Positions 4,075 through 46,559 of a stretch of 64,000 nucleotides of DNA are shown one piece after another. The notes under the pieces were generated by a model. That model saw only the letters and a list, made by a program, of their open reading frames with translations. It did no database searches and was not told the DNA's origin. Made by a program: the position numbers and the translations under genes. Positions within the stretch are counted from its first letter, which is position 1, and each line of letters starts with the position of its first letter. Origin of the DNA: an uncultured Gammaproteobacteria bacterium (lineage in GTDB: Bacteria; Patescibacteriota; Microgenomatia; UBA12405; JAHJSD01); the NCBI GenBank assembly GCA_964428655.1, contig CAYRYE010000001.1, positions 462,158 through 526,157 of the forward strand, read 5' to 3'.

Positions 4075-6113
4075 ACCTAGAAATACCAAATCTCAAATCT
4101 CGTGTCGCCGGAACCGTGCTCCGCCAAAACGTGGCTGCGCAGCGGCGAGTAGCCTCTGACGACGCACAGCAAATCCCAAAGAACAATGACCTTAGTTCAA
4201 GTAAACTAGAGAGGTTAAAAAGAAAGTTTGTAAAGATTTCCAAGAACAGGCGCCTGGTAGGCTTTTTAATTTTTTTAGTTTTATTAATAATTGTTGGCTT
4301 AATAGGAATAGTAGTTCCCGGAACAGCCTTAGTCAATCAAGTAAAAAACTTAGAAACTAAGGCCCAAAAAATTAAGTCAACAATGGCCACCAAAGACCTA
4401 AAATTAATCAAAAGAGAAATGGAAGAAGTTGGCCAGGAAGTTGAGAAACTGGAAAAGGGCTACAAAAGATTATTTCTTCTAAAAATAATTCCTGGCTTGC
4501 GCGGTTATTATCTGGATGGGCAAGGGGTAATTAAGGCGGCAAAAGCAGGTGTTAAAACAGGAAAAATTATTATTGAAGCAGTAGAACCCTATCAAGACTT
4601 TTTAGGCCTGATAGGGGATGAGGAAGAAGGCGCTTTGGCTGGTGGGGAAAAAACAACCGAAGAAAGAATCAGCTTTTTGGTAGAAAGTATCGAAGGCCTA
4701 AGGCCAAGACTGAATGAGATAGAAAAGGAGTTAAAAATAATTGAGGAATCTGTTAGTAGAATAGATCCCCAAAAATACCCCGAGAGAATTAAAGGCAGGG
4801 AAATCAGGAATAAAGTTTCCCAAGGTAAAAGACTAATTGGCCAGATCAGACAGGCTGTTAGCGAAGGCCGGCCGCTGCTTGAGCGGGCTGATTGGCTTTT
4901 GGGTAAAGATGATCCTCGAAAATACCTCTTCTTATTCCAAAATGACGCTGAACTGAGACCCACTGGTGGTTTTTGGACCGCCTATGGAATCATTGAAGTT
5001 GACAACGGCAAGTTTTCCCCATCCGTGTCTGAAGACATTTATGCCCTGGACGCTCGCTTTATGAGTAATATTTTGGCGCCAAGGCCAATTGAGAAATATC
5101 ACAAGAATGTCCATTACTGGTATCTCAGAGACATGAATCTGTCACCTGATTTCAAAACGTCGGTGGAAGAATTTATTAAACACTACAAAGAGATCAAGGG
5201 CGCAAAAGAGTTTGAAGGAGTGATAGCGGTTGACACTCAAGTTCTGGTCGATATTCTGGAGGTTCTGGGGAGAATTGGTGTTCCAGGTTGGGGAAACTTC
5301 ACTCCCGAGCCCGACGATCGCTGCTGGGGTTGTCCTCAGGTTGTTTACCAGTTAGAGTTATTGGCTGATAAGCCGCTGTCAACCATAAAAGCAGATCGAA
5401 AAGGCTTCCTAGCGCCCTTAATGCATTCAATTATTGCCAACGCCTTGGGTTCTCCTAAGGAAAAAGTATCTGATTTAGCTAATGCTGTTTTGAAAAGTTT
5501 TAAAGAAAAAAATATTTTAGTTTACTTTCCGGATGAAGACTTGCAAAAAGCGGTTGAGGGGCTGAACGTTGCTGGCGCTGTCGAGTCGGCAGGAGAAGAT
5601 TACTTCCACCTTAATGATGCCAACTTTGCCGGGGCTAAGTCTAATTTATTCATCAGCCAGGAAGTTAAGCAGGAATACAAAGTTGAAAAAGACGGTCGAG
5701 TAATAAAAAAAGCTACTGTTGTTTATAAAAATACCGCCCCTCCTTCTAATTGTAATTTAGAGCGCGGTGATCTTTGTTTGAATGGTCTTTACAGAAACTG
5801 GTTTAGGTTTTATGTTCCCCAAGGGAGTAAATTAATAAAAATGACTGGTTCAGAAGTTGAGCCGGAAGTTTATGATGAATTGGGCAAAACTGTTCTTGAG
5901 GGTTTTTACGGGAATAAATATCCCCTTCATCCTCAAGGAAGCGCTCGGGTAACAGTTGAATATGAACTGCCTTTTAAACCAGCAAAAACAATAAAACTTC
6001 TAATTCAAAAACAGCCGGGAACAAAAAGTCCCAAATACGAAATCCTGGTTAATGGCAGCAAACAGCGAGAATTTAATCTGTCAGCTGATAGGAATTTGGA
6101 TTTGTCTCTTTAA
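4071..6113 (+). CDS. DUF4012-domain membrane-anchored protein (polysaccharide-locus associated)
   Basis: N-terminal transmembrane segment and coiled-coil region, then the block FQNDAELRPTGGFWTAYGIIEVDNGKF typical of DUF4012. The start is taken at the ATG overlapping the upstream stop; the ORF track begins at 4041. Confidence 0.55.
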   Translation: MNLEIPNLKSRVAGTVLRQNVAAQRRVASDDAQQIPKNNDLSSSKLERLKRKFVKISKNRRLVGFLIFLVLLIIVGLIGIVVPGTALVNQVKNLETKAQKIKSTMATKDLKLIKREMEEVGQEVEKLEKGYKRLFLLKIIPGLRGYYLDGQGVIKAAKAGVKTGKIIIEAVEPYQDFLGLIGDEEEGALAGGEKTTEERISFLVESIEGLRPRLNEIEKELKIIEESVSRIDPQKYPERIKGREIRNKVSQGKRLIGQIRQAVSEGRPLLERADWLLGKDDPRKYLFLFQNDAELRPTGGFWTAYGIIEVDNGKFSPSVSEDIYALDARFMSNILAPRPIEKYHKNVHYWYLRDMNLSPDFKTSVEEFIKHYKEIKGAKEFEGVIAVDTQVLVDILEVLGRIGVPGWGNFTPEPDDRCWGCPQVVYQLELLADKPLSTIKADRKGFLAPLMHSIIANALGSPKEKVSDLANAVLKSFKEKNILVYFPDEDLQKAVEGLNVAGAVESAGEDYFHLNDANFAGAKSNLFISQEVKQEYKVEKDGRVIKKATVVYKNTAPPSNCNLERGDLCLNGLYRNWFRFYVPQGSKLIKMTGSEVEPEVYDELGKTVLEGFYGNKYPLHPQGSARVTVEYELPFKPAKTIKLLIQKQPGTKSPKYEILVNGSKQREFNLSADRNLDLSL

Positions 6114-8660: not shown

Positions 8661-9093
8661 TCTTTTGGGCCAATACCAAGTAAAAGTGAGTCAAAAAGGA
8701 AGGGTGGCCTTTCCTAAAAAATTTAGAGAAATTTTAGGAGAAAAAGTCATTTTAACCAGGGGCTACGAAGGTTGTTTAATTGCTATTTCAGAAAAAGAGT
8801 GGGGAACTTTAGTAGAAGCTACCGAGAAAAAGCCCTTTGTCTTTGGCCCAACGAGAGACACGGCTCGATTTTTATTAGGCAACGCCGCTTTAATTGGACT
8901 TGATGTTCAGGGAAGGTTTATCATCCCCAATCATCTGAGAGACTATGGCGAAATTGAAAACAAAGCAGTATTTTTGGGACTCAATCGTTATGTTGAGATT
9001 TGGTCGGAAAAGAAATGGGGAAATTACCAAGACTACCTCAATAAAAACATTGACCACATCTCAGAAAGATTGAGTGAGCCCAATGAGAGATGA
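8650..9093 (+). CDS. mraZ: Transcriptional regulator MraZ
   Basis: The duplicated MraZ-type fold shows in VKVSQKGRVAFPKKFREIL and a second (I/V)xxKGR-like half. It is the first gene of the division cluster, followed by rsmH. Confidence 0.85.
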   Translation: MVKTLLGQYQVKVSQKGRVAFPKKFREILGEKVILTRGYEGCLIAISEKEWGTLVEATEKKPFVFGPTRDTARFLLGNAALIGLDVQGRFIIPNHLRDYGEIENKAVFLGLNRYVEIWSEKKWGNYQDYLNKNIDHISERLSEPNER

Positions 9094-9967
9094 GACCAAA
9101 CATATTCCAGTACTTTTAAAAGAAGTTATTGAAACTTTGAAGCCTAAAAAAGGAGAGAAGTACATTGATGCCGCCTTAGGCTTTGGAGGTTATGCTCTAG
9201 AACTTGTTGGCAAGGGTAGTAAGGTTTTGGGGATTGAACTGGACCCTGAGGTTTTAAAGCTAGCCAAGAAGCGTTTCTTTGGATTCTGCCCCAAGGCTTC
9301 TTGGAAATTAATCAGTGGTAATTTCGCTGAGATCGAGAAAATTGCCAGTGAAAATGATTTTTGCCCAGTTGAGGGAATAATCTTTGATCTTGGCATTTCT
9401 CGCTGGCATTACAAACAAGCAGGGAGGGGCTTTTCCTTTAAAGACCAAGAGCTGGATATGAGACTTAGCCCTCATTTAGTAATTAGGGCTTCAGATATTG
9501 TTAATAATTATTCCTATGATCAATTTTATAGAGTCTTTACAAAAATTGCTCAAGAAAAACTGGCTGGGCCGATTGCTCGAGCTTTGGTTCGCGCCCGTCG
9601 TTTAAAAAAAATAGAGTCGGCTAATCAATTGGCTGACTTGGTAATGGGTGTTTATCTTAAACATCGAGTGAGAACAAGGCTGCATCCGGCCACTAAGGTT
9701 TTTCTGGCCCTAAGAACAATCGTTAATCAGGAATTAGAAAATCTGAAATCAGGTTTAGGGGGAGCAATTAAAATTTTAAAAACTAAGGGAAAGTTACTGG
9801 TAATTACCTTTAACTCTAACGAAGACAGGATAACAAAAAAATTTTACAGAACAAAAGAAAAACAAGGCTTAATTAAAACCTTGAAATTGGTTTTCCCAAC
9901 TAAAAAAGAAATTAGAATTAACCCTTTAGCTCGAAGCGCTAAATTAAGAATTGCTGTTAAAACATGA
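9074..9967 (+). CDS. rsmH: 16S rRNA (cytosine1402-N4)-methyltransferase RsmH (MraW)
   Basis: HIPVLLKEVIETL...IDAALGFGGYA matches the RsmH N-terminus and SAM-binding loop. It occupies the canonical position after mraZ. Confidence 0.9.
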   Translation: MSPMRDETKHIPVLLKEVIETLKPKKGEKYIDAALGFGGYALELVGKGSKVLGIELDPEVLKLAKKRFFGFCPKASWKLISGNFAEIEKIASENDFCPVEGIIFDLGISRWHYKQAGRGFSFKDQELDMRLSPHLVIRASDIVNNYSYDQFYRVFTKIAQEKLAGPIARALVRARRLKKIESANQLADLVMGVYLKHRVRTRLHPATKVFLALRTIVNQELENLKSGLGGAIKILKTKGKLLVITFNSNEDRITKKFYRTKEKQGLIKTLKLVFPTKKEIRINPLARSAKLRIAVKT

Positions 9968-10272
9968 AAATTAATTCATCTCTCTTAACTAAATATAGAA
10001 TTAAGGCTTATTTATACTTCCTGAGCCTGGTGGTTCTTGTTAATGTTCTCATCTCTTTGGTAATTAACGCTGATTTGCTGGCCAACCAGAAGAAATACAT
10101 TGATCTGGAAAAATCAATTTCACAGCTAAGAGAGGAAAACAACAAGCTTAATCGCAAACTGGCCCATCTTTCCTCACTAACAATGATAAGCCAAGCCGCA
10201 GAAGAGATGGGTCTTGGCCATGACAAGAAAAATATTGTTTTTGTTTCTAAAAGTCAGTTCGCCAAGCGCTAA
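9964..10272 (+). CDS. ftsL: Cell division protein FtsL-like (single transmembrane segment plus coiled coil)
   Basis: A 102-aa protein with one transmembrane segment followed by a coiled coil (QLREENNKLNRKLAHL). It sits between rsmH and ftsI. Confidence 0.5.
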   Translation: MKINSSLLTKYRIKAYLYFLSLVVLVNVLISLVINADLLANQKKYIDLEKSISQLREENNKLNRKLAHLSSLTMISQAAEEMGLGHDKKNIVFVSKSQFAKR

Positions 10273-10274
10273 AG

Positions 10275-12014
10275 ATGGTTAAAAACCGCCTCTGTTTTTT
10301 TCTTCTTGGATTTAATCTTTTACTCTTAATGGTTTTGGCTAGGTTTTTCCACTGGCAAATCATTAATGGCGACCGGCTTTATGTGTTAGCCCAAGGGCAA
10401 AGATTTCAAATATCAGAAATTATCCCTTCACGGGGCAAGATTTACACTGCTGATGATTATCCGCTAGTTTTGAACAAGCCAGCTTTTTCACTTTATGCCT
10501 ATTTGCCCAATATTGACACCGAACCAAATTCTTTGGCTAAAAAGTTGGCGCCGTTACTGGCCGAGCAACAGAAAATTGAAGAATCAACCCAGTCCGCCAT
10601 CAAGGATTACCAAGAATTAGTTGAGGAAGAAACTGAATTAATTAAAGCTAAACTTTCTAGCGGGAAAAAATGGCTGATTTTAAAACGAACTATAGGGGGC
10701 GAAACAAAAGAAACGATCGAGGCTTTTAATATAAAGGGCCTTGGTTTTCAGCAAGAAAGCGACAGGGATTACCCTGAGGCGAGTATGGCAGCTCACTTAT
10801 TGGGATTTGTGGGATTGGATAAAAACTCAAAACCAAAAGGATATTTCGGTCTAGAAGGTTTCTATAACCAGCAGTTATCCGGCGCCTCCGGCTTGATCGT
10901 TGACGAAAAAAACGTTTTTGGCAAGCCAATTTTTTCTGGGAAAAGAGTAGAAGAGGCAATGCAGCCAGGTTTAAACCTGGCTCTTTATTTAGAAAGGCCG
11001 GCCCAGTTTATCCTTGAAAAAGAACTCAAAAAGGGGATTGAGAAATACCAGGCTAAGTCTGGCTGGGGGCTAATCCTTGAACCCTTTACCGGGGGAATTT
11101 TAGCCATGGCTAATTTTCCCGGCTATGATCCTAGGAAATACTCCTCATCTGAAGAAGAATTATTTTCTAATCCAATTGTTGCCGAAGGGTTTGAGCCGGG
11201 ATCAATTTTTAAACCTATAGTTATGGCAGCTGCTTTGGAAAAAGGCGTTGTCAAACCAGAGACTAAGTGTTCCTTTTGTCACGGTCCAAAAAGAATAACT
11301 GATCACGAAATCAAAACTTGGAACAATCAATACCGCCCTAACCCTACCATGAAAGAAGTGATTCAATACTCAGATAATATAGGTATGGTTTTCGTCTCGG
11401 AAAAACTTGGCAAGAAAAATATTTTGGCTTTTCTTAAAAAATTTGGTTTTGATCAAAAAACAGGAATTGATCTTCAGGGAGAGGCCTCACTTTCCATCAG
11501 GCCGGAAAACCAATGGTATCCTCTTGATCTGGCTACGGTTTCCTTTGGCCAGGGCATTTCAATTACCCCTATCCAAATTACTAGGGCTTTTGCCGCCTTA
11601 GCTAACGGAGGGAAATTAATCAAACCCAGAGTAGTGAAGAAAGTTTGGTCCGACGACAACAAAATTGAACTGGTTGAAAAAAGGGGGGAGGAGGAAATAA
11701 TTTCGCCTGAAACTACTGACCAGATAAGAGAAATGTTAGTTAACGCTGTGGAAAATGGAGAAGCCAAATGGATCAAGCCTGAAAGGCTGGTAGTCGCCGG
11801 CAAAACCGGCACTGCTCAAATTCCCATAAGGGGCCATTATGATGAAGAGAAAACAATTGCCTCTTTTATTGGTTTTGCCCCGGCCAACGATCCTAAGTTT
11901 GTAATGTTAATCAGCTTAAGAGAACCGGGCACTTCCCCTTGGGGTTCAGAGACAGCCGCTCCGGTTTGGTTTAGTATCGCCGACCAATTGGCTTACTTAT
12001 GGAATTTGTTATAA
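10275..12014 (+). CDS. ftsI: Class B penicillin-binding protein (FtsI/PBP2-type transpeptidase)
   Basis: N-terminal membrane anchor, a PBP dimerisation region, and transpeptidase motifs (the S-x-x-K region, S-x-N, and KTGTA at VVAGKTGTAQI). Confidence 0.85.
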   Translation: MVKNRLCFFLLGFNLLLLMVLARFFHWQIINGDRLYVLAQGQRFQISEIIPSRGKIYTADDYPLVLNKPAFSLYAYLPNIDTEPNSLAKKLAPLLAEQQKIEESTQSAIKDYQELVEEETELIKAKLSSGKKWLILKRTIGGETKETIEAFNIKGLGFQQESDRDYPEASMAAHLLGFVGLDKNSKPKGYFGLEGFYNQQLSGASGLIVDEKNVFGKPIFSGKRVEEAMQPGLNLALYLERPAQFILEKELKKGIEKYQAKSGWGLILEPFTGGILAMANFPGYDPRKYSSSEEELFSNPIVAEGFEPGSIFKPIVMAAALEKGVVKPETKCSFCHGPKRITDHEIKTWNNQYRPNPTMKEVIQYSDNIGMVFVSEKLGKKNILAFLKKFGFDQKTGIDLQGEASLSIRPENQWYPLDLATVSFGQGISITPIQITRAFAALANGGKLIKPRVVKKVWSDDNKIELVEKRGEEEIISPETTDQIREMLVNAVENGEAKWIKPERLVVAGKTGTAQIPIRGHYDEEKTIASFIGFAPANDPKFVMLISLREPGTSPWGSETAAPVWFSIADQLAYLWNLL

Positions 12015-30529: not shown

Positions 30530-33136
30530 ATGGTGTTTGATCCAAACAAGCTGACTCACAATTCACAGCAAGCTTTGGTCAAAGCTCAAGAATTTGCTGG
30601 AAACTACAAGCATCCTCAAGTAGAACCGCTTCACTTATTTTTAGCTCTCATCATAGGATTGGAGGGAATTGTTGTTGAAGCAATTAAAAAACTAGATGTT
30701 AGTATCGAGAGCCTGGTTAGTGAAATAGAAAAAAAGCTTAATGCTTTACCTAAAGCCGGGGGTGAACTCGACCAAGTTTATGTTTCTCAAAAATTGAGCC
30801 AAGTTCTCAATCAGGCCAGAAAAGAAACTGACTCACTTGGCGATAATTTTATTTCTCGAGAACATTTATTTTTAGCTTTACTAGAGATTGATTCAGATTC
30901 TAAAGAAGCTGGACAAAAATTAGGAATTAATAAAGATAAAATAAAAAAAGTTCTGGTGAATTTGAGGGGAAGTCAAAAGGTGACTGACCAAAATCCGGAA
31001 GGAAAATACAATGTTTTGGAAAAATACACCCTCGATTTAACTAGGCAGGCTCAAGACGGAAAACTGGATCCGGTTATTGGCCGGGATAAAGAAATCAGAA
31101 GAATAATGCAAATTTTATCTCGACGAACCAAAAACAACCCGGTTTTGGTTGGTGACCCAGGAGTAGGAAAAACAGCCATTGTTGAAGGATTAGCTCAAAG
31201 AATTGTCTCTAGTGACATACCTGAAAGCTTAAGTGATAAAAAAGTATTGTCTTTAGACTTAGCCGCTCTTTTGGCAGGAACTAAATTTAGAGGCGAATTT
31301 GAAGAGAGATTAAAAGCGGTTTTAAAAGAAATTGAAGCTGGAACGGGCAAACACATTCTTTTCATTGATGAGCTTCATACTTTAGTTGGAGCTGGCGCCG
31401 CTGAGGGAGCGGTTGATGCCGCCAACATGTTGAAGCCGGCTTTGGCAAGAGGCACATTGCACGCTATTGGCGCCACCACTATTGGCGAATACCGAAAATA
31501 TATTGAAAAGGATGCCGCTTTGGAAAGGCGCTTCCAGCCTGTTTATATTAATGAGCCGTCGATTGAAGATGCAATCGCCATCTTAAGGGGACTTAAGGAA
31601 AAATATGAAATTCATCACGGAATTAGAATTCAAGATAATGCCATTGTTGCCGCCGTTATGCTTTCCAACCGTTATATCCGAGACCGATTTCTGCCTGACA
31701 AAGCTATTGATTTAATTGATGAAGCCGCCTCTTCTTTGAAAATTGAGGCTGAATCAATGCCAACCGATTTAGACGAACTTCAAAGACGAATTACCCAAAT
31801 TAAAATTGAACTCCAAGCCTTGAAAAAAGAAAAGGCGGAATCAGTTAAAAGCAAAGTAAAAACTTTGGAAAAAGAATTAGCGAATAAAAATGAAAAATTC
31901 CGCGATTTGCAATCAGCTTGGGAAAGACAAAGAAAAATTGTTTCCAAAATTAGACAAGTCAAAGCAAAATTAGATAGGCTTCACGAACAATTTAAAAAAG
32001 CAGAAAGAGAAATTGACCTCAATAAAGCAGCTGAAATTAAATATGGCCAAATTCCTGAGTCGGAAAAGGAATTGAAAAAGCTTGAGGAAAAATGGCAAGC
32101 TGTTTCTAAGAAAAAGCGATTGATCAGGGAAGAGGTCAGCGAAGAAGATATCGCTCAAATTGTTTTCCGATGGACTGGTGTTCCGGTTTCAAAGTTAATC
32201 TCTTCTGAATCAGAAAAATTGGCTAATCTAGAAAATGAACTTCACAAAAGAATCATCAATCAAAACGAAGCCGTAATGGAAGTGGCTAATGCCATCAGGA
32301 GAGCCAGGGCGGGAATAAAAGAAGAAGATAGGCCAATTGGCTCCTTTATGTTTATTGGGCCCACCGGAGTAGGGAAAACTGAATTGGCCAAAGCGCTAGC
32401 GGCAGTTCTTTTTGATGATCAAGAAGCGATGATTAGAATCGATATGAGTGAGTATATGGAACAACACTCCGTGGCCAGGCTAATTGGCTCTCCACCGGGC
32501 TATGTTGGTCATGAAGAGGGAGGGCAATTAACTGAAGCGGTGCGAAGAAAACCATACACTGCTATTCTCCTTGATGAGATTGAGAAGGCTCACTCTCAAG
32601 TTTTCAATATTTTACTTCAATTACTGGATGACGGTCGCTTAACTGACGGTAAGGGAAGAACAGTTGATTTTAGGAATACTATTATCATTATGACTTCTAA
32701 CTTGGGTAGTGAAATTATTCGTGAATACACTGAAGAGAAAAAAGATAAAAAGCAAATGGAAACGGAAATCTGGGAAATAATTAATCAATCTTTTAAGCCG
32801 GAATTTATTAATCGGCTTGATCAAATAATTCTTTTTGAATCCCTAAAACAGGAGGCGATTGAAAAAATTGTTGATCTTCAAATTAAAGAAATTGAAAAAA
32901 GACTGGCTGATCAGAAAATAAAAATCAAAGTTTCAAAAGAGGCCAGGAAAATTTTGGCCAAAAAAGGCTATGATCCTGTCTTTGGAGCTAGGCCCCTAAA
33001 GCGGCTAATTCAAAAAGAAATTCTCGACCCCTTAGCAATGATGATCATTGAAGGAAAGATAAAAAAAGAAGGCAGAGTTGAAGCTTCTGTTAAAAATGGC
33101 AAAGTTGTTATTTGTCAACCATCAAGGAGGCAATGA
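30530..33136 (+). CDS. clpB: ATP-dependent chaperone ClpB
   Basis: The Clp N domain, two AAA+ modules ([30 protein letters not shown]), a long coiled-coil middle domain and a length of 868 aa. Confidence 0.95.
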
Positions 33137-43500: not shown

Positions 43501-43989
43501 CAAGTTGCTGAAATTGAAAAAGGCAAGGTGAGAATCGCTGGAGTGATTTCCAGTCTAAGAATCGTGACTACCAGAAACGGGGGCAGAGAAATGGCCTTTG
43601 CCTCAATCGAAGATGAAACCGGAAAACTGGAAGTGGTTATCTTTCCGACAGTTTTCGAACAATCGAGAAACTCAATAATTAGCGAAAAGATAGTCATCAT
43701 TGAAGCTAAAATAGAACAAAGAGATGAGAGACAATCGTTAATCGCGGAAAAAATTATTGACAGTGAGAAAAGGGAAGAAATTGAGCAAATGGGCCAAGAA
43801 GAATTTGTTATTAAAATACCAAAAGGCACCAGCTCTGCAACTTTAGTCAAGCTGAATACTTTGCTTAAGAAAAACCCGGGTCAAAATTACGGCTCTATCC
43901 ATTTCCCGGCTGGAAAAGAATACCGAATTACATCCGGTGTTAATTGGAGTAATGAGTTAGAAATTGAAATACGCAGACTCCTTTGCTAA
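40546..43989 (+). CDS. dnaE: DNA polymerase III alpha subunit
   Basis: The N-terminal PHP domain ([15 protein letters not shown]), polymerase core motifs, an OB fold and a length of 1147 aa. Confidence 0.95.
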
Positions 43990-43999
43990 AATCCTAATC

Positions 44000-44329
44000 A
44001 TGGCAATTCAGGCAAGTTGGCAAGACAAAACTAAATTTAATGTCGGCGATACCGTCAGAATTGATTACAAAATAGTTGAAGAGGGTAAAAAAGAAAGGAC
44101 TCAACCTTTTGAGGGAGTAGTGATTAGTATTCGTGGGGAAGGGGAGAGCAAAACTTTTATTGTCCGCAAGATCGCCACAGGCAGAATTGGGGTGGAAAGA
44201 ATTTTCCCCCTTAATTCTCCTTGGATTGTTAATCTAAAAGTGGTCAAGAGTCCTAAAAAAAGAATCAGAAGAGCTAAACTTTACTATCTCCGCAAAAAAC
44301 CTAAAAAAGGTAAAAAAAGACTGATTTAA
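44000..44329 (+). CDS. rplS: 50S ribosomal protein L19
   Basis: [36 protein letters not shown] matches the bL19 consensus. The start is moved to the internal ATG so it does not overlap dnaE. Confidence 0.85.
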
Positions 44330-44412
44330 TTACACAGACAAAAGCAGGAAAAATTCGAACGCATTTCAAAGAAAATTGTTAAAGTACAGTGTTTTACTTC
44401 CCCAATACTTAT

Positions 44413-44420
44413 TGTATAAT
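44413..44420 (+). promoter_or_regulatory. TG-extended -10 element (TGTATAAT) ~24 nt upstream of the first islet ORF
   Basis: Read directly: ttGTATAAT at 44412-44420. A weak -35 (TTTTAC) lies 17 bp upstream. Confidence 0.35.
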
Positions 44421-44444
44421 CGTGTAACAAATTAACGTACAGAT

Positions 44445-44966
44445 ATGGCAAAAAATGAAATAGGTATTTTTACAATAGGAGAAATCGAAGGTGATTCTCA
44501 TCTTGGAGACAGGCGAGTAAGAACAAGAATAACCGTTGCTCCGGGTTCTGTAAGACCAAAACAAATGTCAGCAGCCTCCAGGTTAGCCCGAACAACAACC
44601 CGCGGAAAAGCAAAATGTTTCGATGGCTCGAGATTCTATGTTGACGAAGACAGCCCACACCTTACCGTCGTTCACGCAGCGGAACATGTCGCACTTACTG
44701 TTGCAGAGCGTATATTTGAAAGGCAGGCTGTTAAAGCAAAAATCGAACCTTCCTCCGTATGGGTTAGCGGACTTTGCGAAACCGAAACCACCTCACGTTC
44801 TAATAGACCGCGTGCCGTCAGAATGACTTTGCGACTCGGACTTGCCGATGTGCGCCAAACAGATGCCTTAGGCGCCGCTCGCGGCTGCCATGACGTTCTC
44901 GAGCATTCACTAAGAAGAGGATTAGAAATAACAAGCGGTGTAATAACTAGAACTAGAAGAAGATAA
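44445..44966 (+). CDS. Hypothetical Arg-rich protein (173 aa) in a GC-elevated islet
   Basis: The longest ORF in a segment whose GC (~48%) is well above the flanks (~35%). There is no recognisable domain. Coding status is uncertain. Confidence 0.3.
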   Translation: MAKNEIGIFTIGEIEGDSHLGDRRVRTRITVAPGSVRPKQMSAASRLARTTTRGKAKCFDGSRFYVDEDSPHLTVVHAAEHVALTVAERIFERQAVKAKIEPSSVWVSGLCETETTSRSNRPRAVRMTLRLGLADVRQTDALGAARGCHDVLEHSLRRGLEITSGVITRTRRR

Positions 44967-45032
44967 AACAAACATCTACATTTTTCTTTTGCGATTTTTT
45001 CTCGCGAGCATCAACCAGTAGTTGGAGGAAGA

Positions 45033-45098
45033 ATGCCAATTATAGAAAGAAGAGAATTAGATTCTGATTTAGATGCTCCCATCTTAAATAGACGCTAG
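45033..45098 (+). CDS. Candidate 21-codon small ORF (MPIIERRELDSDLDAPILNRR) with a GGAGG Shine-Dalgarno
   Basis: GGAGG at 45024-45028 sits 4 nt before the ATG. The ORF lies in the 225-nt spacer between the two plus-strand islet ORFs. Confidence 0.15.
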   Translation: MPIIERRELDSDLDAPILNRR

Positions 45099-45156
45099 AT
45101 TTCTCTTGTTGTTAAGTTTACTTTCTAAAAATCTGAGATATGAATATTACACATAT

Positions 45157-45185
45157 TTGTAAATCCTTACTTCTTATCCTATAAT
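45157..45185 (+). promoter_or_regulatory. Sigma70-like promoter TTGTAA-17-TATAAT positioned for a leaderless transcript of the following ORF
   Basis: TTGTAA is at 45157-45162 and TATAAT at 45180-45185. The ATG at 45193 is 7 nt after the -10, where the transcript would start. Confidence 0.4.
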
Positions 45186-45192
45186 ACATGTT

Positions 45193-45657
45193 ATGCCAGA
45201 AAAGGGCGAAAACTTAGTAACCAGAATCAACTATAATCCCAGAGTAAAATCTGCTTTGGCCCTTGCTTTTTTCGGCGCCTCGGCTTTTGCTTTGAAAAGA
45301 TTGGAGCTTAGTCAACAACCTTTGCCTTCCGTAATGCGTGGAAGGCTTTTTGGCACTTGTGCAACTCCAGTAATTGCGCCTCTCATTGGGTTCATAACAG
45401 GGGCAGATATGCCTCGTGCGCGCGCGGCAGCAGGTCTTTTTGCGCCTTGCTACTACGAATATCTCCAAAGCATTGGAAAAGCCAAAGGAACTTTTGATCA
45501 AGGAGATTTTGCGGCTTATGCCCTTGGCGCAATCGGCTGGGCCTTGTTTGATGGATGCGCCAGGGCCCTTCACGATTCTGGTTTAACAAATCCAATTTAT
45601 GGAGCGCTCGGAATCAATAGACGTCCTCCCAGAAATCGCCCAGAGCTTGGAGAGTAA
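45193..45657 (+). CDS. Hypothetical small hydrophobic (Gly/Ala-rich) protein, probably membrane-associated, in the GC-elevated islet
   Basis: A 154-aa protein with hydrophobic stretches (ALALAFFGASAFAL, VIAPLIGFITG, AAYALGAIGWALF). Third codon positions are T-biased, consistent with real coding. Confidence 0.3.
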   Translation: MPEKGENLVTRINYNPRVKSALALAFFGASAFALKRLELSQQPLPSVMRGRLFGTCATPVIAPLIGFITGADMPRARAAAGLFAPCYYEYLQSIGKAKGTFDQGDFAAYALGAIGWALFDGCARALHDSGLTNPIYGALGINRRPPRNRPELGE

Positions 45658-45703
45658 ACCACATTTGCCATAAAGTTCACATCCACCGCACTTCCACTTT
45701 ATT

Positions 45704-45982
45704 TTATTTTCTTCTTTTGCGACCTTGCCTTTGCCTCACAACCTCTTTTGCCAGCGCCCAATTGACTACCAAAAGTTCTTGTGTTCTATTTCTGCCACCA
45801 ACTCTGTTAAAAGCGTTTTGTACGACAAAAGCTATTTGGCCTCTTTTCCCGGGGACAGGAGTGATAGGAGTAACTTGGCCTCTTCTACCATCTTCAAAAA
45901 TAGTAGCAGTATATGGCCTTAGCCCCCCCTCACTCCATATTTTCGGAGTCTTTGCTACAACGATTATTACCCTCTCCGTCAT
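45704..45982 (-). CDS. Hypothetical protein with a strongly basic C-terminal tail (RQRQGRKRRK)
   Basis: The ATG at 45982 lies 11 nt downstream of a consensus promoter. The protein reads MTERVIIVVAKTPKIW...RQGRKRRK. The ORF track extends to a TTG at 45991. Confidence 0.3.
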   Translation of the reverse strand: MTERVIIVVAKTPKIWSEGGLRPYTATIFEDGRRGQVTPITPVPGKRGQIAFVVQNAFNRVGGRNRTQELLVVNWALAKEVVRQRQGRKRRK

Positions 45983-45993
45983 TATAGTCAATT

Positions 45994-46022
45994 ATTATAA
46001 GATTTATTTTTCATTTTGTCAA
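45994..46022 (-). promoter_or_regulatory. Perfect consensus sigma70 promoter TTGACA-17 nt-TATAAT on the minus strand
   Basis: The reverse complement of 45994-46022 reads TTGACAaaatgaaaaataaatctTATAAT. The downstream ATG leaves only a ~4-5 nt leader. Confidence 0.45.
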
Positions 46023-46140
46023 AAAATCGCAATATTCCCACTAAGTATGGAACAATCGCTTTTGGGAAAATATCTTTAATTCTTTAATATAATGACCTCG
46101 GAGTCTGGCACGACCAAGGCGTGATTAAATTTTCACTCTC

Positions 46141-46214
46141 TGTGCCGCCAGCGGGATTCGAACCCGCGATTTCCACCTTGAAAGAGTGGCGTCCTAGGCC
46201 CCTAGACCATGGCG
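46141..46214 (-). tRNA. tRNA-Glu (anticodon TTC)
   Basis: The reverse complement is GCCGCCA...anticodon arm CCACT-CTTTCAA-GGTGG...GCGGGTTCGAATCCCGC...TGGCGGC-A. Confidence 0.8.
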
Positions 46215-46304
46215 GCTCTTGTCACTTACTGAGTAATTATACTACAATGGAGGTGTTATGAAAATATTGGGCGTTAAGGAAAAGAAAGGGGGTGAAGTTT
46301 TAAA

Positions 46305-46559
46305 ATGGCCGATTTAAAGGTCGGTAAGATTACCCACTACTTTGATAAAATTGGAGTCGCTGTTTTGGAAGTTGAAGAGGAAACAATCAGTGTAGGTGAT
46401 ACCATTAAAATTACTGGACATGGAGAAGACTTTGAACAAAAGATAGAATCAATGCAGGTCGAACACGAAAATGTCCAAACTGCTAAAAAAGGCACCAGCA
46501 TTGGGTTAAAAATAGAACAGCCAGTTAAAAAAGGCGACGAAGTTTATAAAGTTGCTTAA
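46305..46559 (+). CDS. Small beta-barrel protein (EF-Tu domain-2-like fold, candidate)
   Basis: An 84-aa protein with a VGDTIKITGHGEDFEQKIESMQVEHENV pattern that resembles translation-factor beta-barrel domains. This is a weak call. Confidence 0.25.
   Translation: MADLKVGKITHYFDKIGVAVLEVEEETISVGDTIKITGHGEDFEQKIESMQVEHENVQTAKKGTSIGLKIEQPVKKGDEVYKVA

Follow-up and report, generated by a model that had tools for sequence, protein, structure and literature searches.

The interval between rplS and a tRNA-Glu gene, at positions 44330-46140 of the 64-kb stretch of contig CAYRYE010000001.1 analysed here (the window), holds an islet of three open reading frames (ORFs) of 173, 154 and 92 amino acids, which we call ORF1, ORF2 and ORF3. 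Judged by gene order in related genomes, the segment is cargo particular to this lineage. It occupies a slot prone to recombination, which is itself part of a conserved gene block of the Microgenomates. The high GC content of the islet is explained by the amino acid composition of its proteins. We think it reasonably likely that the three ORFs are separate coding genes making up a small accessory islet in a hypervariable slot, acquired long ago from a GC-richer donor and ameliorated since. The features of the locus are as follows.

44000-44329, plus strand: rplS (ribosomal protein L19; Pfam Ribosomal_L19, E 3.5e-32), the conserved left boundary, found beside dnaE in relatives
44445-44966, plus strand: ORF1, 173 amino acids, an Arg-rich ORFan
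45193-45657, plus strand: ORF2, 154 amino acids, a predicted membrane protein of a small unnamed family
45704-45982, minus strand: ORF3, 92 amino acids from ATG (95 from a TTG at 45991), a basic ORFan
46142-46216, minus strand: tRNA-Glu(UUC), the conserved right boundary, its 3′ end toward the islet

No other ORF of note was found in the islet. The layout is as described in the original prediction, an earlier reading made from the letters of this stretch, which had recognized two plus-strand ORFs and one minus-strand ORF with a poly-basic tail in a segment directly adjoining a tRNA gene.

Base composition and coding potential

The GC content of the whole window is 38.7%, rather than the ~35% estimated earlier, and that of ORF1 and ORF2 is 47-48%. 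In windows of 200 nucleotides (nt), GC is 0.49-0.53 over ORF1 and ORF2 and only 0.32-0.35 in the spacer between them. There are two GC-rich blocks matching the two coding regions, and no islet-wide plateau. The elevation described in the original prediction for 44.45-45.66 kb is therefore present over ORF1 and ORF2, but it does not form a continuous islet. In 500-nt windows the rise amounts to ~2.3 standard deviations and is equalled by a gene region near 14.7 kb.

The excess GC of the three ORFs lies entirely in codon positions 1 and 2. Values at the first, second and third positions (GC1/GC2/GC3) are 0.55/0.53/0.33 for ORF1, 0.56/0.52/0.37 for ORF2 and 0.50/0.46/0.34 for ORF3; across 65 window genes GC3 has a median of 0.34, compared with 0.33-0.37 for the three ORFs. 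Among the same 65 genes, ORF1-3 rank 1, 2 and 3 in GC2 and 1, 2 and 4 in arginine over arginine plus lysine, R/(R+K). Ala, Gly, Arg and Pro are abundant in the three proteins and Lys is scarce, while the synonymous sites of the genes keep the AT bias of the host, and we therefore attribute the raised GC to protein composition.

Three-base GC periodicity was found in all three ORFs, at decreasing significance (chi-square p 2e-5 for ORF1, 0.003 for ORF2 and 0.05 for ORF3). With a codon log-likelihood for which 32 long window genes served as the training set, only the annotated frames come out positive, and they score best of the six; values for the antisense ORFs are below or close to zero, from -0.075 to 0.018. 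The codon score of ORF1 falls within the range of window genes and that of ORF3 is 0.110. Scores on synonymous codons are 0.085, 0.048 and 0.102 for ORF1, ORF2 and ORF3, where the 32 training genes span 0.05-0.163, so that ORF2 stands at the lower edge of the range; both scores of ORF3 are near the gene medians. Compared with local dinucleotide shuffles, the lengths of the ORFs have p values of about 0.001 (ORF1), 0.0005 (ORF2) and 0.015 (ORF3). On these statistics ORF1 is probably protein-coding, and so, probably, is ORF3, which is the least certain of the three.

Gene order in relatives

Two sources of related loci were used. A genome-collection scan with rplS found a locus in a Microgenomates metagenome-assembled genome (L014), with the order gatB-dnaE-rplS-yraN-ruvC-p84-metallopeptidase-holA-HAD...PPDK. 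A scan of Joint Genome Institute (JGI) metagenomes with p84, the small gene at 46305-46559 of the window, recovered 80 loci (L089-L168). The shared order is dnaE-rplS-(yraN)-[variable]-(tRNA-Glu)-(ruvC)-p84-(metallopeptidase)-holA-(HAD)-cupin-PPDK-eno. The same flanks recur in L014 and in the majority of the longer loci among the 80, whereas the content of the slot differs.

In L014 the slot contains yraN/ruvC, and both of these genes are absent throughout the 64 kb of the window. The closest locus, L089, has identities of 73% in DnaE, 76% in rplS, 80% in p84 and 75% in PPDK; its slot runs from rplS through a single HhH-GPD glycosylase gene to tRNA-Glu on the minus strand and p84. In L090 the slot holds an HTH-N6/N4 DNA methylase together with two large unrecognised genes of 374 and 773 amino acids. 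Other contents are yraN with Ppx/GppA, yraN with Lgt, a metallo-beta-lactamase (MBL) hydrolase with or without an acylphosphatase, and a radical-SAM enzyme with a polysaccharide deacetylase. The tRNA-Glu gene of the window is nearly identical to those at the equivalent place in L090 and L124 and is therefore part of the framework and not of the cargo; its strand flips among relatives.

All stop-to-stop ORFs of the syntenic loci were searched with profiles and phmmer, and no relative of ORF1-3 was found at any of them. The original prediction had proposed inspecting the orthologous rplS-tRNA-Glu junctions, and would have taken relatives carrying the same segment as a sign of a conserved core region. 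At L014 and the 80 metagenome loci the relatives are without ORF1-3, which agrees with an insert specific to the lineage.

We note that p84 (84 amino acids) has weak matches of the EF-Tu domain 2 and Peptidase_U32_C kind. It is kept beside holA at 54-80% identity in about 400 metagenome stretches, and thus counts among the core proteins of the clade, small and widespread but without a name.

ORF1 and ORF3

Both ORF1 and ORF3 are Arg-rich and Lys-poor. ORF1 has an isoelectric point (pI) of 10.5, with 13.9% R and 3.5% K, and ORF3 has a pI of 11.8 and the tail RQRQGRKRRK. Each gave only self-matches among 5.8 billion clusters and in a HMMER scan of 1.84 billion representatives, for which the query was the three islet proteins concatenated. 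None of ORF1-3 has a match in Pfam, NCBIfam, PADLOC or PHROGs (Pfam and PADLOC-DB at E<=1), and PDB sequence searches with ORF1, ORF3 and the ORF2 profile were likewise negative. The earlier impression that none of the proteins resembles a family that can be named was thus borne out, the one family found here, that of ORF2, being itself unnamed. From their strong basicity, ORF1 and ORF3 most plausibly bind nucleic acid.

The AlphaFold2 single-sequence model of ORF1 is poor, with a predicted local distance difference test (pLDDT) score of 48, and its Foldseek matches (E>=0.07) are meaningless. The idea that ORF1 is a decayed yraN, ruvC or glycosylase gene was rejected, since tblastn and phmmer show no similarity. 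ORF3 contains an internal 15-nt direct repeat, the copies 39 nt apart (45836-45889) and each encoding G[RK]RGQ[VI]; the long hairpin that underlies the fold score of ORF3 discussed below is formed by this stretch.

ORF2 and its family

Among the 5.8 billion clusters ORF2 stands alone, matching only itself. The HMMER scan, by contrast, gave about 40 relatives of ~150 amino acids (E 1e-24 to 2e-4, 28-50% identity), annotated 'hypothetical protein' in their sources. The family alignment (A1) has a conserved N-terminal ENxxTRxNY and, further along, the motif GTFDxxDFxAYxxGAxxWxxFDxxAKxL[HY]DSGxTxPIYxxLGIxxRR. With A1 as input, AlphaFold2 gave a model with a pLDDT of 93.1 and a predicted template modelling (pTM) score of 0.82. 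It consists of four long helices (16-39, 53-69, 74-93 and 104-129) and two short ones (8-13 and 133-139). A conserved acidic/polar motif, E-x2-Q ... G-T-F-D-x2-D, lies where helix 3 ends and helix 4 begins.

Sub-threshold matches to Pfam VanZ occur in 6 of 33 family members (best E 4e-4), along profile positions of about 56-117. ORF2 itself has no VanZ match at E<=1, and the gathering threshold of 30.1 bits was not reached. As reference we used a sequence for the VanZ of Tn1546, which matches Pfam VanZ with E 3e-21; VanZ homologues were also sought for a local profile, and none was present in the loci collected. VanZ of this transposon reduces the binding of lipoglycopeptides and the susceptibility to teicoplanin. 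Membership of the ORF2 family in VanZ is not established. ORF2 is probably a four-helix-bundle membrane protein that would act on the envelope in the manner proposed for VanZ-like proteins.

The family is patchy, and its members lie beside tRNA genes, in rRNA-operon spacers, or near transposase or recombinase genes. One homologue follows an IS30-type transposase. The closest homologue (L084:6138-6602, 48% identity) has a GC3 of 0.47 in a contig of 0.35 GC and is near genes for a serine recombinase, a GP3_package terminase small subunit, Mrr_cat and Hypoth_Ymh; this composition and company suggest that it arrived recently, on an element that is mobile or resembles a prophage.

Counting the window, a tRNA gene lies within 500 nt in 5 of 11 sampled contexts. 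Four homologues are located 1-162 nt downstream of a tRNA on the same strand; one begins 19 nt after tRNA-Arg(CCT) (L085:980-1533) and another 1 nt after tRNA-Ile(TAT) (L086:980-1502). The other two of the four, on unrelated contigs (L169:5887-6516 and L178:3765-4949), sit between tRNA-Ile and tRNA-Ala upstream of the 23S rRNA. In L169, the gene of 465 nt is bracketed by a 23-nt direct repeat (21/23) of the 3′ end of tRNA-Ile, the copies being 557 nt apart; these repeats look like the attachment (att) sites of a single-gene, integrase-less insert. The same rRNA operon (L169:3374-10700) has a group I intron in its 23S rRNA gene (8917-9138) and LAGLIDADG genes just after the 16S (4873-5466) and just after the 23S (10142-10699).

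Neither BLASTP, in four contexts, nor gene tables, in six more, gave an ORF1- or ORF3-like neighbour of an ORF2 relative. ORF1-3 are therefore not a conserved module in the contexts sampled.

Promoters and translation signals

Promoter-like sites precede each of the three ORFs as well as rplS:

43964-43992, plus strand: rplS promoter, TTGAAA-17-TAAAAT, TG-extended; the -10 overlaps the dnaE stop, and the site ends 7 nt before the ATG
44393-44420, plus strand: ORF1 promoter-like site, TTTACT-16-TATAAT; ends 24 nt before the ATG, a short leader lacking a Shine-Dalgarno (SD) sequence being predicted
45157-45185, plus strand: ORF2 promoter-like site, TTGTAA-17-TATAAT; ends 7 nt before the ATG, a leaderless mRNA being predicted
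46022-45994, minus strand: ORF3 promoter, perfect consensus TTGACA-17-TATAAT; ends 11 nt before the ATG

The three sites claimed in the original prediction are all present, including the perfect one of ORF3, although that of ORF1 is not TG-extended as had been thought. The ORF3 promoter is the sole 12/12 consensus match in 64 kb. Matches of 10/12 are not enriched window-wide (27, compared with 33 +/- 5 in shuffles), and the 10/12 match of ORF1, taken alone, carries no significance.

An SD core of at least 4 nt within 20 nt upstream of the first ATG is found in 12 of 66 window ORFs. The -10 element of the gene at 30530 ends 9 nt before the start, a layout similar to that of rplS. The leaderless or SD-less style is therefore the norm of this genome and not a mark of foreign origin, contrary to the earlier view that it sets the islet apart from its neighbours.

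Two further short ORFs were seen close by. A 21-codon ORF, MPIIERRELDSDLDAPILNRR, lies in the ORF1-ORF2 spacer at 45033-45098 (plus strand), and the GGAGG ahead of it (45024-45028) is one of the few clear SD sites nearby. On the other side of tRNA-Glu, a TTGTCA-18-TACAAT site ahead of p84, within 46219-46317 (plus strand), is followed directly by GGAGG (46249-46253); a 19-codon ORF at 46258-46317 (plus strand) overlaps the p84 start at 46305 in a different frame.

Origin of the islet

In the mechanism that we propose, the framework would be the Microgenomates block (Patescibacteria, or Candidate Phyla Radiation, CPR) gatB-dnaE-rplS-[slot]-tRNA-Glu-p84-holA-HAD-cupin-PPDK-eno. ORF1-3 would have been acquired jointly, long ago, from a GC-richer donor into the slot between rplS and tRNA-Glu, and their third codon positions would later have ameliorated to the AT bias of the host. 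Each gene may have its own promoter and give an mRNA that is leaderless or has a very short leader, SD-less and typical of the genome. The GC3 of ORF1-3 is at the window median and their synonymous codon use matches the rest of the window, and a recent transfer is therefore not supported. Given that three adjacent genes share a GC-type amino acid composition and have native-looking synonymous sites, an old co-acquisition followed by amelioration is suggested. The horizontally acquired cassette of the original prediction is upheld in so far as the insert is lineage-specific, its genes are outliers in GC2 and in Arg over Lys, and ORF2 has relatives associated with mobile elements.

A number of observations weigh against this account of the islet. 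There is no integrase, no flanking or att repeat and no tRNA fragment in it: when 44200-46141 was examined by a repeat search and by a word-7 blastn with the 15 window tRNAs, the matches, of 7-9 nt, were no more than chance ones. No target-site duplication was found at the islet either; as to integrase, repeats and duplication the original prediction was right. Phage and plasmid DNA gave no match to the islet. Because of these absences, only composition and synteny speak for a horizontal origin. Even the nearest relative is far off, at about 73-80% amino acid identity, and a gain at this locus cannot be told apart from losses in the relatives. Because ORF1 and ORF3 have no homologues, their reality as genes rests on single-sequence statistics, which for ORF3 are borderline; the transcript strand of ORF3 also folds better than most shuffles (z -2.43, 1 of 100 shuffles as good), compared with +0.29 for the opposite strand. 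As regards ORF2, the best score against VanZ is 16 bits (cutoff 30.1), as in family member P0013, with residues 52-119 on profile positions 56-117. An hhalign comparison of A1 with the Tn1546 VanZ places the E-x2-Q...G-x2-D-x2-D motif in register, but at E 0.16 and a probability <1%, and fold searches with ORF2 gave only generic helical bundles.

Two smaller results belong here. A tRNA 3′-half remnant considered at about 45672-45697, after ORF2, was not supported by blastn against the window tRNAs. In IMG/VR nothing was found for ORF1, ORF3 or the ORF2 family.

The original prediction had also allowed that some or all of the segment might be a large structured non-coding RNA, with illusory ORFs. 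The elevated GC in an AT-rich genome, the strong promoters without SD and the lack of protein homologues of ORF1 and ORF3 would fit such an RNA. However, GC rises only in codon positions 1 and 2, with three-base periodicity, and ORF2 belongs to a conserved protein family and has a fold predicted with confidence. Rfam 15 gives only tRNA-Glu at gathering score and nothing credible in the region at E<=10. The folds of the ORF1 and ORF2 regions are no better than shuffles (z +1.86 and +0.17; spacer -0.82). On codon-position GC, codon scores, ORF lengths, Rfam and folds, this reading is therefore rejected for ORF1 and ORF2, and for the whole or most of the segment we regard it as extremely improbable. 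A narrower version, in which the ORF3 region (about 45700-45990, minus strand) gives a structured small RNA from the consensus promoter just downstream of tRNA-Glu and the 92-residue ORF is incidental, is unlikely, though not to the same extent. It draws on the fold difference between the strands, on a promoter that is the strongest of the window, and on an ORF that has no protein homologue and a GC periodicity of only borderline significance. Against this, the ORF3 frame scores best of six and near the medians of real genes, its length is unusual among shuffles, Rfam is silent, no intrinsic terminator was found, and a z of -2.43 as one among five folds computed is weak evidence.

If ORF1-3 are taken as genes, they might still be native, either fast-evolving or born in the lineage, with a slot that differs because the genomes are far apart and rearranged. 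The matching GC3 and synonymous codon use agree with this, as do the lack of mobility genes and att repeats, the distance of the closest relative, and a promoter and leaderless style that is the same as that of rplS. However, birth from AT-rich DNA does not predict that three neighbours should share an extreme GC-rich, Arg-over-Lys composition, and the patchy ORF2 family is associated with mobile-element and tRNA genes; we consider a native origin doubtful, while giving it some weight. Very unlikely, in our view, is that the three genes are one functional cassette (toxin/immunity, defence or membrane-active), as the original prediction suggested. They are adjacent and small, share an unusual composition and comprise one membrane and two basic proteins, and in L090 the slot contains a module with a methylase, possibly a restriction-modification system. 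Yet each gene has a separate promoter and ORF3 is convergent, no defence or toxin-antitoxin model in PADLOC-DB or Pfam matches any of them at E<=1, with NCBIfam and PHROGs likewise negative, and the sampled contexts of the ORF2 family have no ORF1- or ORF3-like gene. We find no support for a cassette whose genes act together as a toxin, defence or peptide system.

We therefore retain the old accessory islet as the preferred reading; a demonstrable cassette it is not. A more specific proposal, which we put forward as a long shot, is that in Patescibacteria the ORF2 family travels on minimal integrase-less inserts that land at tRNA 3′ ends, including that of tRNA-Ile in rRNA operons. The islet of the window would then be a decayed and ameliorated example, with ORF1 and ORF3 as co-transferred cargo.

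In practical terms the window gains little, namely three accessory genes that are hypothetical and of which two are ORFans. More generally, GC islands call for caution, since a patch of high GC in an AT-rich genome can result from protein composition alone; when GC is counted separately at each codon position, coding DNA, structured RNA and recent transfer can be told apart at once. Of most interest is where the genes of the ORF2 family are found. These unnamed small membrane proteins, whose fold is predicted with confidence, are encoded at unusual addresses, directly after tRNA genes and inside rRNA-operon spacers.

Comparison with known systems

The islet resembles tRNA-adjacent genomic islets in that it lies against a tRNA 3′ end, has conserved flanks and a content that varies by relative, and consists of compositional outliers. 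It differs in having no integrase, att or tRNA-fragment repeats or mobility gene, in being only 1.8 kb long, and in the apparently complete amelioration of its synonymous sites.

Actinobacteria, Deinococcus and archaea commonly have leaderless mRNAs, with a -10 element that stands ~7 nt ahead of the start codon (e.g. PMC3160421, PMC6028130). ORF2 and ORF3 are similar to such genes, with a -10 that ends 7 and 11 nt, respectively, before the ATG and no SD. Unlike those, they are predicted to be of this type from sequence geometry alone, and they share the layout with rplS and the gene at 30530.

The VanZ-like family (PF04892; clan partner DUF2809) is the closest comparison for ORF2. Both are ~150-160 amino acids long with four membrane helices, which in ORF2 are predicted, in keeping with the ~4-5 transmembrane segments expected of a small protein of this family. 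At E 0.16, the hhalign alignment sets E-x2-Q ... G-x2-D-x2-D ... G of the ORF2 family, at the junction of helices 3 and 4, opposite the VanZ motif, E-x2-Q ... G-x2-D-x2-D-x3-N-x2-G. The scores of the ORF2 family are, however, under the Pfam cutoff, and the matches cover the central helices only. The N-terminal helix with ENxxTRxNY and the C-terminal L[HY]DSGxTxPIYxxLGIxxRR segment are outside the VanZ alignment and are the ORF2 family's own.

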